Shown in pieces: positions 15,396 to 23,419 of a stretch of 64,000 nt of DNA. Source of the DNA: Escherichia coli (GTDB lineage Bacteria; Pseudomonadota; Gammaproteobacteria; Enterobacterales; Enterobacteriaceae); the NCBI RefSeq assembly GCF_001677475.2, contig NZ_CP015229.1; one strand, 5' to 3'. Numbering within the stretch: the stretch's first letter is position 1; the number at the start of each line of letters is the position of its first letter. Under the pieces are notes generated by a model. That model worked only from the letters and a program-made list of their open reading frames with translations. It did not search any database and had not been told where the DNA came from. The translations under genes were made by a program, and so were the position numbers.

Positions 15396-16570
15396 GCTTT
15401 GCTCGCCTCATGACGATTATGATCGTTTTGTTTTAAAGGAGGAAGTATCGGCAGTAGACGAATGAGTACGATGTAAGCGCAAATCTCAATAGCCACAAAA
15501 CCAATAGAAATCAACAGTTCTTCCCAGGTCGGGAAGTAGGCGTAACCGCCGCCCGGGTTGAATGCCACCAGCGAATAGGTCAGACGCCAGGTTGCACAAC
15601 CTAACAGCGCGCTCAGTGCTGACAGGAACAGCATGCGGGAATCATTACGCAGCTTCGCCACACGCAGAACGACCAGCGGGAAGAGCATCAGCAGGACTTC
15701 AATCCAGAACATCACGGAATAGAAGTCACCGGCAAACGCTAACGACAGCTTGTCGCGATAGATAAGCTCGCCAAAGCGCAGCACGATGAAAATCGCCAGC
15801 AACACACTGATGGTGTTGGTCAGCTTAACGAACAGACTCTTTTCATCCGGACCGTTGCCACGCAGACCCGCCTGCACCAACGAACCTTCAAAGATGACAA
15901 TCGAGAAGCCCATGATGAATGCCGTCAGCAGCGAGAACAGCGGCAACATTTCATAGCTCTGCCACAACGGATGCACTTTGTAGCCCGCCGAGATCATCAG
16001 CGACCCCATTGAAGACTGGTGCATAGTTGGCAGCAGCGCACCGAGCGCGATGATGAAGAACATCACCTTGTTCAGACGCTGTAGCGACACCTTCCAGCCC
16101 AATCGTTCAAACAATGCCGGAGCAAACTCCAGTGCCATCACGCCGATGTAGATGGTCATACAGACCGCCGTCTCGAACAGTACCGAGTTCACGTTGAAGT
16201 GACCCGGAATGTAGAAGTACGGCAGGTTCCAGTAGCGACCAACGTCGATGGTGATCGACAAGCCACCCAGTGAGTAACCGAACAGACTCGCCAACAGCGC
16301 CGGACGCACCAGCGGATGGTATTGCCCACGGTTAAAGACGTATACCGCCCACGCCAGCGCCCAGCCGCCACAGGCAAAGCCGGTGCCGATCAACAGGTCA
16401 AACGCGATCCACACACCCCACGGGAAGCCGCCGTTCAGGTCAGAGACTGAGCCCAGACCGAACACCAGACGCTTCACAATCAGGAGCATACAGATGACGA
16501 TTAACGGTCCAAAAATCATGACCGGTTTACTGATGATTTTGCCGCCCAGCGGTTGTGGATCATGACTCAT
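15392..16570 (-). CDS. hybB: Hydrogenase-2 integral membrane subunit (392 aa)
   Basis: Polytopic membrane protein; operon position. Confidence 0.95.
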
Positions 16571-17546
16571 GATCGTCTCCTCCGTCGTGATGGTCGTTTT
16601 TGGTGTTGCGACGAACCAGCACGGTTAAGCCCGCCAGCACAGCCAGTGGTAGCATCATGCCTTTATACAGGGTGTGTTGAATATTTTCGGAACGCGCACC
16701 GGTAGAAAGATCGTCCAGTTTCGGCAGGTCGAGATTTTCGTAAGGCACACCGGTCAGTACCAGAACCTGAGTACCGCCGCCCTCTTTCTCGCCGTACAGA
16801 TGCGGATAATATTTCGGCACCGTATGCAGGTAAGTGTCGCCAGATTTCAGCGTCTGACGCGGATAGTGGTATTCGCTGCCTGGCTTCAGCGCCAGACGTT
16901 TTTTCGCCTCAGCCATCAGCTCTTCACGCGTACCAAAAATCACCGCGCCCGCCGGGCACACTTCTACGCAGCCAGGCAGACCGCCTTTATCAAGACGTTC
17001 CACACCTTTCTGGTTGCACAGTTCACACTTATGCAGCGCACCAAATGGGTTGTTGTAGTCGTACTTCGGCACGTTGTATGGGCAGGCGACCATGCAGTAA
17101 CGGCAGCCAGTGCACACATCTTTGTCGTAATGGACAATGCCGGTTTTCGGATCTTTTTTCAGCGCAGAGACCGGACACACGGAGACACAGTTCGGATCGA
17201 CGCAGTGCATACACTGTTTCTTAATATACGCGTAGCCGTTCTCTTCCTGGTCTTTGTTGACACCCGTGCCGCTGGTCCACACCTGAATAATGTTATTGGT
17301 ATACGGCGACAGTTTGTCGTTGTTCGACCAGGTCTGTTCCCCTTGTGGGTTACGTTCAGGGAAGTTGATATCCTGACACTTGGTGACGCAAGCCTGGCAG
17401 CCTACGCACAAGGTCGAGTCGTACAACATCCCCAGCGATCCCGGAATTGGCGGGCGGTTTTCAGCAGCCGCATGACTGACAGACGGCAGCGCGCCCGTCA
17501 GCAATGCCCCGCAGGAGGCTGCTTTAATAAAATTACGTCTGTTCAC
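16560..17546 (-). CDS. hybA: Hydrogenase-2 ferredoxin-type 4Fe-4S subunit (328 aa)
   Basis: Tat-type N-terminus (RRNFIK) and multiple CxxCxxCxxxCP clusters. Confidence 0.96.
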
Positions 17547-17548
17547 GG

Positions 17549-18667
17549 TTATTCTCCCCGTGAGTCAGCGTTATCTTTCTTTTGCTGACGACCCAGTTCA
17601 CGCACCGCCATCACGCTGACACCGGCAACCAGCCCAACCACACCGCCGAGCAAACCGATAGCGCCTGCAGAGACGTTGCCGCCCTCTTTAGCGTTAACAT
17701 CCGGTTTCTGCGAACGCGGAGTCTGGTTTTCGACGTTGGCAAGCTGATGGATGCCTTTATGGAAGCCGATACCTTCTTCGTTACAGCCATAGCACGGGTG
17801 ACCAATCGCCACCGGCCACACACCACCAACATCGCAGAATTGCAGCGTTGAGCAGTTGCCGTAAGTTTCTGGCCCTTTACAGCCGAGGTGGTACAGGCAC
17901 CAGCCTTCGCGGTGGCCTTCATCACCGAACTCTTTGGCAAAACGACCAGCATCGAAGTGCGGGCGGCGTTCGCAGTGTTCGTGAATCAGACGGCCATAGG
18001 CGAAAGTCGGACGGTTTTTGTCATCCAGTTTCGGCGGTTTGCCGTAAGTGATGATGTGCGCAACGGTCGCGAGGAAGTTGTGCGGGTTCGGTGGGCAGCC
18101 CGGAATGTTGATAACGGTTTTGCCCGGCAGAACTTCTTGCAGGCTGACAGCGCCAGTTGGGTTAACTCCAGCTGCGGCAACACCGCCCCACGCAGAGCAG
18201 GAACCGATAGCGATAATGGCTGCTGCGCCTTCCGCCGCTTTGCGGATGTGATCCACAATCGGCTCACCGGCAACCATGCAATAAATACCGTTATCTTTTA
18301 ATGGGATGGAACCATCCACCACTAACACATACTGCCCTTTGTACTTCTCGAGAGCGTTATGTTTGTTCTCTTCGACCTGATGACCGAAGGCGGCGGAAAG
18401 CACTTCGTGATACTCCAGAGAGATAGTCTCCAGTACGAGGTTTTCTACTGTTGGATGCGTTGCACGAAGCAGAGATTCCGTACAACCGGTGCACTCCTGC
18501 GCGCCAATCCAGATAACTGGCGGACGCTGCGGGTTAGTAACCGATTCGGCCATCTCTGCAGCGGCTTTGCTACTTAACCCCATGGTGGCGGCTAATGCTG
18601 CACAAAGCTTCATGAAATCACGACGGTTAATGCCGTGAGAATGGATGAGGGTGTTATCTCCAGTCAT
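17549..18667 (-). CDS. hybO: [NiFe] hydrogenase-2 small subunit (372 aa)
   Basis: Twin-arginine signal INRRDFMK and Fe-S cysteine ligands. Confidence 0.96.
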
Positions 18668-18855
18668 TTATAGTTATTCCGTTGCGAAGACCTGGCATAT
18701 ATTTTGCCTCAATCGCAAAATCAATAATGCGATCGATGCGCCATTTACCACACATTTATTATGGTTATCGATATCATGATACTGCGGCGGGGCGCTAAAA
18801 CGAAGGGAAGAAGCATTAGTGTAATTAATTAAAGCAAGATAATACGTATGTTTGA
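18668..18855 (-). promoter_or_regulatory. hyb operon promoter / 5' leader region
   Basis: Intergenic AT-rich stretch upstream of hybO and downstream of yghW. Confidence 0.4.
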
Positions 18856-19143
18856 TCAATTTTCGAGGCGATAACCGGCCATAAAAAAGCGCAACGTAGA
18901 ACAGGAATTATTCTCACGAAAGAAATCCATTACCATCTCTTTATCCAGTCCATAGCGGCGCGTCAGAATACCCGCTTCCCAGGCGCTAAGCTGGCGATCT
19001 CCGGTCTTTTCGTACATCCGGTGTGAGTAGCCTAATACAAAACCGCGTTTATAATCGGCACAGTATTTTGTCACATTAACCGCACTGTCGGCATGCGTTG
19101 CTTTTAATCCCGCCATTAAGCCTTTACCAAAATGGTTATTCAT
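18856..19143 (-). CDS. yghW: DUF2623-family protein (95 aa)
   Basis: [28 protein letters not shown]...; matches K-12 YghW from memory. Confidence 0.88.
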
Positions 19144-19261
19144 CGTTCACCTCATTCGCTATATATTATCATATATAGCGATATTTTAGGCAAAGAACGA
19201 CTTTTGCGCACGCTATTTTTTCATGCTTGTTTAAGACGTAATCCCGTAAGAGATAAACCTA

Positions 19262-20149
19262 TCAGGAGAGATATTTATCGAACCATTTCAGCGTCCTTTG
19301 CCAGGCAAGATCGGCGGCAGATTTGTCATAACGGGGCGTGGAATCATTATGGAATCCGTGATTAACCCCCGGATAGATATACGCCTCATAGACCTTATTA
19401 TTGGCTTTCAACGCCGCCTCGTAAGCAGGCCAGCCCTCGTTGATTCGGGTGTCCAGTTCCGCGTAGTGGAGTAGTAAAGGCGCTTCAATCTTCGCCACAT
19501 CGGCGGTGGGTGCCTGTCGACCATAAAACGGCACCGCGCAGGCCAGTTCCGGATACGCGACAGCCGCCGCGTTCGATACGCCACCGCCATAGCAAAATCC
19601 GGTAATACCCACTTTGCCTGTCGCTTGCGGATAGCGTTGCATAAACTCAATTGCGGCAAAGAAATCATTCATCAGTTTGGTTGGATCAACCTGCTGTTGC
19701 AGCTCACGACCTTTATCATCATTTCCCGGATAACCTCCAACGGAACTTAAGCCGTCAGGTGCCAGGGCGATATACCCCGCCTTCGCCACTCGCCGTGCCA
19801 CATCTTCGATATACGGATTCAGTCCACGATTCTCATGCACCACCACCACGGCTGGCGTTTTGCCGCTCATCTTTGCGGGCTTCACCAGATAACCCCGTAC
19901 CTCGCCGTGACCATTTGGTGAAGGATACGTGATGTACTCAGCAACAATCTCCGGGTCGGTAAACTCTACCTGAGTCGCCAGCGCATAATTTGGCTTGAGC
20001 AAATCAAACAACGCTAATGCCGTCATCCCGCCTATCGCATACTTCGCCGCAAGGTTGAGGAACTCACGTTTCGAGATTTTCCCGTGAGCGTAATAGTCAT
20101 AGTAATCCAGCAACTCTTGTGGGAAATCTTTGGCGGTTAAACGCGGCAT
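19262..20149 (-). CDS. yghX: Dienelactone hydrolase-family protein, intact (~295 aa)
   Basis: Uninterrupted ORF with nucleophile-elbow GFCYGG; start taken at MPRLTAKDF. K-12 carries this as a frameshifted pseudogene, as I recall. Confidence 0.8.
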   Translation of the reverse strand: MPRLTAKDFPQELLDYYDYYAHGKISKREFLNLAAKYAIGGMTALALFDLLKPNYALATQVEFTDPEIVAEYITYPSPNGHGEVRGYLVKPAKMSGKTPAVVVVHENRGLNPYIEDVARRVAKAGYIALAPDGLSSVGGYPGNDDKGRELQQQVDPTKLMNDFFAAIEFMQRYPQATGKVGITGFCYGGGVSNAAAVAYPELACAVPFYGRQAPTADVAKIEAPLLLHYAELDTRINEGWPAYEAALKANNKVYEAYIYPGVNHGFHNDSTPRYDKSAADLAWQRTLKWFDKYLS

Positions 20150-20305
20150 CGTTGCACTCCTCAGTTGGTGTTTTTTTAAGCAAAGCATAAGCGCGTGTTT
20201 TTGCCCAATTTTTCGTCACTCTGTGAGCCAGACTACGGGATGCGCGCTGGCGAATCGCTAAACTAGAAACATTGTTTCGAAATTGAACGGTGGAAAGGAG
20301 AGGTC

Positions 20306-21346
20306 ATGGTCTGGTTAGCGAATCCCGAACGTTACGGGCAGATGCAGTACCGCTATTGCGGAAAAAGTGGTTTACGCCTGCCCGCGTTATCGCTCGGTTT
20401 ATGGCACAATTTCGGTCACGTTAACGCGCTGGAATCACAGCGTGAGATCCTGCGTAAAGCGTTTGATTTGGGCATTACGCACTTTGATTTAGCCAATAAT
20501 TACGGGCCGCCTCCAGGAAGCGCAGAAGAGAACTTTGGTCGTCTGCTGCGCGAGGATTTTGCCGCTTATCGCGATGAACTGATTATCTCTACCAAAGCCG
20601 GATACGATATGTGGCCCGGCCCTTACGGCTCTGGCGGTTCACGTAAATATCTGCTCGCCAGCCTCGACCAAAGCCTGAACCGTATGGGGCTTGAGTATGT
20701 CGATATCTTTTACTCTCATCGCGTCGATGAAAATACGCCGATGGAAGAAACCGCCTCTGCGCTGGCTCATGCGGTACAAAGCGGTAAGGCGCTGTATGTC
20801 GGGATCTCCTCTTACTCGCCAGAGCGGACGCAAAAAATGGTCGAGTTGCTGCGCGAGTGGAAAATTCCGCTGTTAATTCATCAACCTTCTTACAATTTAC
20901 TGAACCGCTGGGTGGATAAAAGCGGCCTGCTGGATACCCTGCAACATAACGGCGTGGGCTGCATTGCCTTTACTCCTCTGGCTCAGGGATTGCTGACCGG
21001 AAAATATCTCAACGGTATTCCGCAAGATTCACGGATGCATCGTGAAGGGAATAAAGTTCGTGGTCTGACGCCGAAAATGCTCACCGAAGCCAACCTCAAC
21101 AGCCTGCGGTTATTGAATGAAATGGCACAGCAGCGTGGACAATCAATGGCGCAAATGGCGTTAAGCTGGTTGCTGAAAGATGATCGCGTGACGTCGGTAT
21201 TGATTGGTGCCAGCCGCGCGGAGCAACTTGAGGAGAACGTGCAGGCGCTGAATAATCTGACATTTAGCACCGAGGAGCTGGCGCAGATTGATCAGCATAT
21301 CGCCGATGGCGAGCTGAATCTGTGGCAGGCGTCTTCCGATAAATGA
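20306..21346 (+). CDS. gpr: L-glyceraldehyde-3-phosphate reductase, aldo-keto reductase (346 aa)
   Basis: MVWLANPERYGQMQYRYCGKSGLRLPALSLGLWHNFG AKR N-terminus. Confidence 0.93.
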   Translation: MVWLANPERYGQMQYRYCGKSGLRLPALSLGLWHNFGHVNALESQREILRKAFDLGITHFDLANNYGPPPGSAEENFGRLLREDFAAYRDELIISTKAGYDMWPGPYGSGGSRKYLLASLDQSLNRMGLEYVDIFYSHRVDENTPMEETASALAHAVQSGKALYVGISSYSPERTQKMVELLREWKIPLLIHQPSYNLLNRWVDKSGLLDTLQHNGVGCIAFTPLAQGLLTGKYLNGIPQDSRMHREGNKVRGLTPKMLTEANLNSLRLLNEMAQQRGQSMAQMALSWLLKDDRVTSVLIGASRAEQLEENVQALNNLTFSTEELAQIDQHIADGELNLWQASSDK

Positions 21347-21357
21347 CCTGTTAATAA

Positions 21358-21377
21358 CGGGCGCGAGAACCGCGCCC
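21358..21377. terminator. Bidirectional terminator hairpin between convergent gpr and yqhA
   Basis: cgggcgcg-agaa-cgcgcccg. Confidence 0.55.
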
Positions 21378-21385
21378 GAATCAGA

Positions 21386-21949
<564 letters not shown>

Positions 21950-22070
21950 TCAACATATCCGTTAAACCTTTGTCGCATAAATCCGAGGTTTAGGGATCTT
22001 CCTGGTTCCCTTATCAACGCATCGAGAGCGTCTACCCTTAAAGGACGTTGAACCTGAAGGGAGAAAAACA

Positions 22071-22955
22071 ATGTCTCATTTAAAAGACCCGACCACGCAG
22101 TATTACACTGGTGAATATCCCAAACAGAAACAACCGACGCCAGGCATCCAGGCGAAAATGACACCGGTGCCGGATTGCGGCGAGAAAACCTATGTTGGTA
22201 GCGGTCGCCTGAAAGATCGTAAAGCACTGGTGACAGGGGGCGATTCCGGAATCGGTCGCGCTGCCGCCATCGCTTACGCGCGTGAAGGGGCTGACGTGGC
22301 GATCAGTTATCTTCCCGTGGAAGAAGAAGACGCTCAGGATGTGAAAAAGATCATTGAAGAATGCGGACGCAAAGCCGTTCTGCTGCCAGGCGATTTAAGC
22401 GATGAGAAATTCGCCCGTTCGCTGGTTCACGAAGCGCACAAGGCGTTAGGCGGGCTGGATATTATGGCGCTGGTCGCCGGGAAACAGGTTGCCATTCCTG
22501 ATATTGCAGACCTCACCAGCGAACAGTTTCAAAAGACCTTTGCCATTAACGTTTTCGCGCTGTTCTGGCTAACCCAGGAAGCGATCCCCCTGCTACCGAA
22601 AGGTGCCAGTATCATCACCACTTCGTCAATCCAGGCATACCAGCCAAGCCCGCATTTACTGGACTATGCGGCTACGAAGGCGGCGATTCTGAACTACAGC
22701 CGTGGCCTGGCAAAACAGGTCGCGGAGAAAGGTATTCGGGTGAATATTGTTGCGCCAGGCCCGATCTGGACAGCACTGCAAATTTCCGGCGGACAGACGC
22801 AGGATAAGATCCCGCAGTTCGGCCAGCAAACACCAATGAAGCGTGCGGGGCAACCGGCGGAACTGGCCCCTGTATATGTTTACCTGGCAAGTCAGGAGTC
22901 GAGCTACGTCACCGCAGAAGTGCATGGCGTGTGCGGCGGCGAGCATTTAGGCTAA
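22071..22955 (+). CDS. yghA: Short-chain dehydrogenase/reductase, NAD(P)-dependent (294 aa)
   Basis: [10 protein letters not shown] cofactor motif and SDR fold. Confidence 0.92.
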
Positions 22956-22999
22956 AAAAATGCCCGGTTGTGAAAAGCAACCGGGCATCATTTTTATTT
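22956..22999. terminator. Bidirectional rho-independent terminator between convergent yghA and exbD
   Basis: atgcccggttg...caaccgggcat stem flanked by A-run upstream and T-run downstream. Confidence 0.7.
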
Positions 23000-23419
23000 C
23001 GCTTTGGCAGTTTCTTCGCCGACCAGACCTATCTTCAGGTAACCCGCCTGATGCAGCGTATCCATTACCTTCATCAACGTCTCGTAATCGACGGTTTTAT
23101 CCGCACGGAAGAAGATGGTGGTGTCTTTCTTACCTTCGGTTAACGCATTCAGCGCCGTAACCATTGTTTCATCGGTGACCGGATCGTTACCGATAAACAT
23201 CGAGTTGTCCGCCTTCACCGACAGATAAACCGGTTTTTCCGGGCGCGGCTGCGGCGTGCTGGTAGAAGCAGGCAAGTTCACCTTCACATCTACCGTCGCT
23301 AACGGTGCCGCCACCATAAAGATAATCAGCAGAACCAACATCACGTCGATAAACGGCGTCACGTTGATATCATGCATTTCGCCGTTATCGTCGAGGTTTT
23401 CGTTAAGATGCATTGCCAT
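22994..23419 (-). CDS. exbD: TonB-system energy transducer ExbD (141 aa)
   Basis: MAMHLNENLDDNGEMHDINVTPFIDVMLVLLIIFMV. Confidence 0.96.
   Translation of the reverse strand: MAMHLNENLDDNGEMHDINVTPFIDVMLVLLIIFMVAAPLATVDVKVNLPASTSTPQPRPEKPVYLSVKADNSMFIGNDPVTDETMVTALNALTEGKKDTTIFFRADKTVDYETLMKVMDTLHQAGYLKIGLVGEETAKAK

Follow-up and report, generated by a model that had tools for sequence, protein, structure and literature searches.

The intact yghX gene of an Escherichia coli strain: a predicted dienelactone hydrolase family protein whose gene is frameshifted in K-12

The closest described system is YghX of Escherichia coli O157:H7 Sakai ('EcoDLH'; PDB 4ZV9, 2.0 A), which is the product of the same gene at the same locus (hybO-yghW-yghX-gpr-yqhA). 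The crystallised construct begins at Q60, just past the predicted cleavage site considered below, and lacks residues 1-59; the active-site Cys is oxidised or modified in the crystal, and the purified protein had no detectable phosphotriesterase activity against paraoxon or FDDEP (2026 bioRxiv preprint 10.1101/2025.10.30.685675). The closest other solved structure is that of a putative dienelactone hydrolase (DLH) from Klebsiella pneumoniae ('KpDLH'; PDB 3F67; E=7.6e-24, 28% identity, ITGFCWGG elbow), which lacks the N-terminal extension of YghX and, in contrast to EcoDLH, has weak FDDEP phosphotriesterase activity (bioRxiv 10.1101/2025.10.30.685675). Pseudomonas ClcD (PDB 1DIN, EC 3.1.1.45) resembles YghX in its alpha/beta-hydrolase fold (TM-score 0.84 when normalised to 1DIN, 0.67 when normalised to the full-length query), its Cys-His-Asp triad and the Glu that partners the cysteine. 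However, ClcD is approximately 25% identical to YghX, has about 236 aa in its PDB entries, matches YghX from residue 73 on, and has no counterpart to the N-terminal segment. Its role is in chlorocatechol degradation, whereas dienelactone hydrolysis by YghX is only putative.

The orthologous locus of K-12 (98.5% DNA identity over a 1.2-kb query containing the gene) has the same promoter region, ribosome-binding site (RBS) and start codon, but the 'TA' of codon 37 and the 'C' of codon 157 are missing, and its sole product is the 47-aa protein YqhI. Nearly all of the literature on yghX uses this K-12 pseudogene as a 'neutral' integration site in engineered K-12 strains. In addition, an older review names yghX as a computational candidate for a cPHB polymerase because of its GXCXG motif, no more than a prediction (PMC3709699).

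The DNA examined in this study is a stretch of 64,000 nucleotides from E. coli contig NZ_CP015229.1 (hereafter the window). With a probability of roughly 90%, positions 19262-20149 on its minus strand hold an intact, ancestral and selectively maintained yghX allele that encodes a DLH-family hydrolase and that K-12 has lost through two deletions. The window's YghX is 99% identical to 4ZV9 over residues 60-294, and its model superposes on that structure at 0.4 A rmsd; compared to the O157:H7 allele of strain SS52, it has five substitutions (I39V, V69F, S135N, Y229F and T286I). An identical protein has already been deposited in NCBI (ANO90914.1 and others, seen on 47 contigs), and the draft assembly GCA_019140065.1 is 100% identical to the window from 16262 to 23149. 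As a separate observation, none of the 5,426 complete RefSeq E. coli genomes exceeds 98.2% identity to the 24 kb from 8000 to 32000, yet the draft assembly matches at 100% from 16262 to 23149; either the E. coli lineage of the window or a locally divergent haplotype in it is therefore missing from the complete genomes.

The yghX gene and its neighbourhood

The features that define the gene and its start are as follows.
19262-20149, minus strand: yghX coding sequence, 295 codons plus stop, uninterrupted (basis: ORF list, NCBIfam, Pfam and RefSeq CDS models)
20157-20162, minus strand: ribosome-binding site GAGGAG, 7 nt upstream of the ATG at 20149, identical in K-12
20150-20188, minus strand: in-frame upstream extension of 13 codons from the ATG at 20188, yielding a 308-aa ORF

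A preliminary description of the window had reported yghX as uninterrupted over approximately 295-308 codons, and both lengths are found: the minus-strand ORF from 20188 to 19262 encodes 308 aa, while its second Met, at 20149, gives 295 aa. The shorter version has the same coordinates as the RefSeq yghX CDS model of other strains (888 bp). The 295-aa start has its RBS within the 13-codon extension, the same Met (MPRL/MTRL) opens the orthologues of other genera, and it also opens the experimentally detected YqhI of K-12 (PMC6001520). On these three grounds, the 295-aa start is considered real and the 308-aa start at ATG 20188 was rejected; the extension is probably not translated. A single 308-aa model was present among the cluster members listed.

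The order of ORFs in the window (hybO, yghW, yghX, gpr, yqhA) matches that of K-12 and other annotated genomes, and the chromosomal position of yghX between yghW and gpr is conserved. The intergenic region between yghX and yghW holds an inverted repeat, TCGCTATATAT-TATC-ATATATAGCGA, at window 19156-19181, with 11-bp arms and a 4-nt loop. This repeat ends 13 nt upstream of the yghW start codon and overlaps a promoter-like -10 element; across six strains, the arms are kept in five and the loop is variable, with two changes in one arm in ST95-32. The repeat may serve yghW as an operator or as a hairpin in its 5'-UTR.

Deletions in K-12 and their distribution in E. coli

In the MG1655 annotation, yghX is represented by the pseudogene b4658 and the small CDS yqhI (b4755), and the W3110 copy is flagged 'frameshifted' by PGAP, in agreement with the earlier statement that the K-12 gene is annotated as a frameshifted pseudogene. 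Alignment of the window with K-12 MG1655 located two frameshifting deletions, at codons 37 and 157.
20039-20041, minus strand: codon 37 (TAT, Tyr), intact in the window; K-12 lacks 'TA' (window 20040-20041)
19679-19681, minus strand: codon 157 (ACC, Thr), intact in the window; K-12 lacks one 'C' (window 19680) inside CCAACCAAAC

The pairwise alignment and frame translations show that the 2-bp loss in codon 37 of K-12 produces a frameshift and a stop after 47 residues, which is exactly YqhI. The 1-bp loss in codon 157 then restores the original frame downstream, for a net loss of 3 bp. In K-12, Glu106 is consequently read in a different frame from Cys186, Asp233 and His264, and the complete catalytic domain is not encoded by any one frame. 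Besides the deletions, K-12 and the window differ by 11 substitutions within the ORF and are thus not identical across it. The window has neither of the K-12-type pseudogene lesions. The restoration of frame by the codon-157 deletion in K-12 MG1655 (locus L003, 857-1741) may be due to chance or to selection.

Allele frequencies were determined in 5,426 complete E. coli genomes with probes of 50-52 nt that had the indel at their centre, which forces the exact 28-mer required by megablast to span the site. At codon 37, 3490 genomes carried the intact allele and 1505 the 2-bp deletion (4995/5425 accounted for); at codon 157, the corresponding numbers were 4221 and 1199 for the 1-bp deletion (5420/5425 accounted for). 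The 2-bp deletion is therefore found in approximately 28% of the 5,426 complete genomes and the 1-bp deletion in 22%. About 430 genomes were matched by neither codon-37 probe, and at least part of these are intact because SNP-rich intact alleles, such as that of strain 300444, escape both probes (in-silico check). Codon 37 is intact in at least 64% of the 5,426 complete genomes, and probably in about 72%. Repeating the search at codon 37 with the common V39 allele returned the same 3490 genomes, while the window's exact 52-mer at this site was found in one of 5,426.

The majority of E. coli carry an intact yghX, and the pseudogene, far from being peculiar to K-12, is a lineage-wide allele. The preliminary description was accurate about the intactness of the gene, but the special status it implied does not hold, as the intact state is that of the majority at both codons. 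Likewise, K-12 is indeed frameshifted, but the deletions are not confined to it, occurring in 1505 and 1199 genomes. The observation of an intact yghX is correct but ordinary, and it was already known: thousands of genomes annotate the intact gene, and the structure of its product has been solved.

The same counts bear on the idea that the difference from K-12 is an artefact, either of sequencing or annotation in K-12 or of assembly in the window. Single-base indels are a frequent assembly error, and one of the lesions lies in the short repeat CCAACCAAAC. Nevertheless, both deletions are present in MG1655, in the independent assembly of W3110 and in many unrelated isolates (1505 and 1199 genomes), while the intact bases are present in 3490 and 4221 genomes, and the independent draft assembly agrees completely with the window over 6.9 kb. 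Moreover, YqhI, the 47-aa product predicted from the 2-bp deletion, has been detected experimentally (PMC6001520). An error in the K-12 sequence or annotation was rejected because the same deletions recur in so many genomes, and the probability that the difference is an artefact of any kind is negligible.

At least approximately 300 genomes have the first deletion (2 bp, codon 37) without the second (1 bp, codon 157); strain 1916D6, for example, carries the 2-bp deletion alone. In a 1.2-kb search, an evenly spaced sample of 40 rows contained matches spanning 1201, 1199 or 1198 bp (and two of 1202 bp) but never 1200 bp, as would be expected if the 1-bp deletion arose within the lineage carrying the 2-bp one. 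The likely sequence of events is that the 2-bp deletion in codon 37 occurred first and left only the 47-aa remnant YqhI, and that the nested 1-bp deletion in codon 157 came later. The enzyme would then have been lost in K-12 and in roughly a quarter of sequenced E. coli, while the strain from which the window derives would never have acquired either lesion. The loss of the gene in about 28% of genomes, by the 2-bp deletion, indicates that yghX is dispensable in at least some lineages.

Several individual genomes had other configurations. In strain IAL7255 (locus L013, 3663-4512), only the last 96 bp of yghX remain beside an IS1 copy and adjoin mdtM; this is an independent, IS1-associated destruction of the gene and rearrangement of the locus. 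Strain EcN_Sk, which bears a Nissle-type label, has a doubly frameshifted yghX of the K-12 type, and its gpr and yghW proteins are identical to those of K-12; either recombination brought in the K-12 haplotype or the strain has a misleading label. Among the complete E. coli genomes, one of the matches to an intact yghX region was on a plasmid-classed record. The 1.2-kb search also returned approximately 670 extra match places, which point to partial second copies or repeats in some genomes.

Catalytic domain, ancestry and selection

The window's YghX matches the NCBIfam model NF041440 ('YghX family hydrolase') with 587.7 bits against a cutoff of 460, with residues 3-294 aligned to positions 1-292 of the 292 in the profile, and the Pfam model DLH (PF01738) with 164.7 bits against a cutoff of 21 (E=3e-48; residues 84-294 aligned to positions 1-217 of 217). 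A separate match to the Pfam model YqhI-like (PF23678) covers residues 1-36. Given these NCBIfam and Pfam matches, yghX is not a chance ORF. The candidate catalytic residues were located by HMMER alignment to the ClcD variant 4U2C (1DIN numbering, in which position 123 is the site of C123S), and their conservation was counted in 36 YghX homologues, down to 36% identity.
19832-19834, minus strand: Glu106 (HENRG motif), equivalent to ClcD Glu36; E in 31 of 36 homologues
19583-19600, minus strand: nucleophile elbow G184-F-C186-Y-G-G189, with Cys186 (19592-19594) equivalent to ClcD Cys123; C in 34 of 36 homologues
19451-19453, minus strand: Asp233, triad acid, equivalent to ClcD Asp171; present in 36 of 36 homologues
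19358-19360, minus strand: His264, triad base, equivalent to ClcD His202; H in 35 of 36 homologues

The catalytic-site features of the DLH family are thus all present, namely a Cys-His-Asp triad, a Cys within a G-x-C-x-G elbow and the equivalent of Glu36, and the GFCYGG elbow noted in the preliminary description is confirmed at residues 184-189. The AlphaFold2 model of the window's YghX (mean pLDDT 96, pTM 0.93; 0.4 A from 4ZV9) has the alpha/beta-hydrolase fold of the family, with a target-normalised TM-score of 0.84 against 1DIN. By sequence and model, YghX is predicted to be an alpha/beta-hydrolase of the dienelactone hydrolase family with a Cys186-His264-Asp233 triad and with Glu106 placed as Glu36 is in ClcD. 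By analogy with the chemistry of the family, the Cys186 thiolate would attack an ester, lactone or thioester carbonyl to form an acyl-thioester intermediate, from which histidine-activated water would then release the acid. The term 'dienelactone hydrolase' used in the preliminary description is appropriate as a family name but not as a demonstrated activity. To our knowledge, the chlorocatechol pathway is absent from E. coli, and dienelactone hydrolysis is therefore unlikely to be the native reaction of YghX.

Full-length orthologues (294-298 aa, 85-92% identity) are found in Citrobacter (including Citrobacter koseri), Pseudescherichia, Enterobacter, Kosakonia, Leclercia and others, and the E. 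fergusonii protein falls in the same 90% cluster as the window's YghX. Since full-length orthologues exist in E. fergusonii and in five or more further enterobacterial genera, the intact gene is the ancestral state. Among eight intact E. coli alleles, dN/dS ranges from 0.02 to 0.12 (Nei-Gojobori; 28 pairwise comparisons), with dS of up to 0.30, and the window's allele has values of 0.03-0.12 against the seven others. Intact yghX alleles are under strong purifying selection. The orthologues in other genera, the low dN/dS and the catalytic residues, all of them present in the sequence, together support the earlier suggestion that this strain probably keeps the ancestral functional enzyme.

It could still be that the gene, despite its open ORF, is dead or silent in this particular strain, as an intact-looking pseudogene whose expression has been lost or which carries an inactivating missense change. 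The gene is dispensable, with the 2-bp deletion in approximately 28% of complete genomes, the phosphotriesterase assays of the orthologue EcoDLH were negative, and I39 of the window's allele is a rare variant (its exact 52-mer occurs in one of 5,426 complete genomes). On the other hand, the dN/dS of 0.03-0.12 against the seven other alleles, the full set of catalytic residues, and an RBS and start codon that are the same as in K-12, where translation is detectable, all argue for a working gene. The amino acid changes themselves also speak against inactivation: the allele differs from that of 118UI, the closest in a complete genome, only by the conservative I39V in the N-terminal segment and from the other six by 2-5 substitutions, none of them at catalytic residues, and Y229 is the state found in outgroups. 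A dead or silent gene is therefore considered very unlikely.

The N-terminal segment and YqhI

Upstream of the catalytic domain, YghX carries a segment that may direct its export.
19976-20149, minus strand: N-terminal 58 residues, with n-region ELLDYYDYYAH, then S-K27-R28-E-F-L, a moderately hydrophobic stretch with G40-G41, and P53-N-Y-A56-L-A58

Relatives retrieved by an exhaustive HMMER search share the N-terminal consensus DLYDxYxH-x4-RRxFL-x-R-L-x3-AGG-x3-A-x-A-x-L-x2-L-x-PNYAxA, in which the n-region motif DLYDxYxH is conserved to 36% identity. In the alignment of 36 homologues, position 27 is R in 25 and K in nine (the enterobacterial proteins and two others), while H22 is found in 32, R28 in 33, A56 in 24 and A58 in 26. 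The window does not have the twin-arginine motif proper (S/T-R-R-x-F-L-K) but S-K-R-E-F-L, and its N-terminus had no match to the Tat profiles TIGR01409 and PF10518. One RR homologue passes the cutoff of TIGR01409 (20.3 bits versus 16.7), the other matches being sub-threshold. A weakly hydrophobic region (Kyte-Doolittle maximum of approximately 1.9 over residues 34-50) is followed by P53 and the AxA site A56-L-A58. Because distant homologues have an RR consensus and the AxA site is present, we infer that the 58 residues are a somewhat probable Tat-type signal peptide, in which KR replaces RR, and that YghX is exported. The protein would be made with this 58-residue segment, whose features (S-K-R-E-F-L, a short hydrophobic stretch and A-L-A before T59) are closest to those of a Tat-type export signal, and the mature enzyme would probably be periplasmic, beginning near T59/Q60.

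In the AlphaFold2 model, residues 1-60 form three helices with mean pLDDT of 88-94 over 10-residue blocks, in a chain with a pTM of 0.93; such predicted confidence is unusual for a cleaved signal peptide. Consequently, it is also conceivable, if rather doubtful, that YghX is not exported, that residues 1-58 are a retained helical module (a lid, an oligomerisation element or a membrane-associating element) bearing an RRxFL-like relic, and that the hydrolase is cytoplasmic or membrane-attached. The three modelled helices would fit this possibility, as would the conservation of DLYDxYxH to 36% identity and of H22 in 32 of 36 homologues (far above what is usual for signal peptides), the KR of the enterobacterial clade together with the lack of a Tat profile match for the window's protein, and a weak likeness of one homologue's N-terminus to the uncleaved Rieske Tat signal-anchor PF10399 (20.5 bits, below the cutoff of 24). 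However, a polar-RR-x-F-L motif followed by about 20 uncharged residues with Gly, Pro and AxA is the canonical Tat layout and is family-wide, one homologue is above the TIGR01409 cutoff, and residues 1-59 are not needed for the catalytic domain to fold and crystallise. Folding of Tat substrates takes place in the cytoplasm, before export. For that reason, a structured N-terminus does not contradict a Tat signal, and the two would be compatible if the signal docked on the folded domain prior to export. Among the solved structures compared, none covers the N-terminal segment of YghX, and a literature search on dienelactone hydrolase and twin-arginine found nothing relevant, nor did the papers searched on yghX report where the protein is localised. 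The Tat-type signal peptide is the reading preferred here.

The N-terminal segment is also what remains of the protein in K-12, where YqhI consists of YghX residues 1-36, identical to those of the window, and an 11-residue frameshift tail. YqhI is reported to be expressed (PMC6001520) and to be induced in low Mg2+ independently of PhoQP, and the growth defect of a yqhI deletion in low Mg2+ was not complemented by plasmid-encoded YqhI (PMC11429745). Its expression in K-12 (PMC6001520, PMC11429745) indicates that the shared promoter, RBS and start codon work; the window and K-12 have the same RBS and start region, with four differences in the intergenic region upstream. YqhI has been reported to match a GT-B glycosyltransferase domain by CD-search (PMC6001520), but as it is composed of the first 36 residues of a DLH hydrolase leader and a frameshift tail, this match is probably spurious. 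In effect, the Pfam family YqhI-like (PF23678) is a model of the YghX leader.

K-12 is atypical at yghX, which most natural E. coli retain as an intact and selectively maintained gene for a putative hydrolase. Beyond correct annotation, an intact yghX matters little, and the conserved N-terminal segment is the sole point of any interest. YqhI is the N-terminal stump of the YghX enzyme, which should temper functional readings of YqhI. It can be speculated, as an improbable extension of the Tat reading, that the YghX family consists of cofactor-less, Tat-exported cysteine hydrolases whose 58-residue leader (DLYDxYxH...RRxFL...AxA), unusually conserved and modelled with high confidence, does more than target the protein. 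It could, for instance, act as a docked pro-segment that covers or controls the active-site cysteine before export, and YqhI would be a free-standing remnant of that leader. If this were true, strains with a complete yghX, such as the one from which the window derives, would be the right system in which to study the leader.
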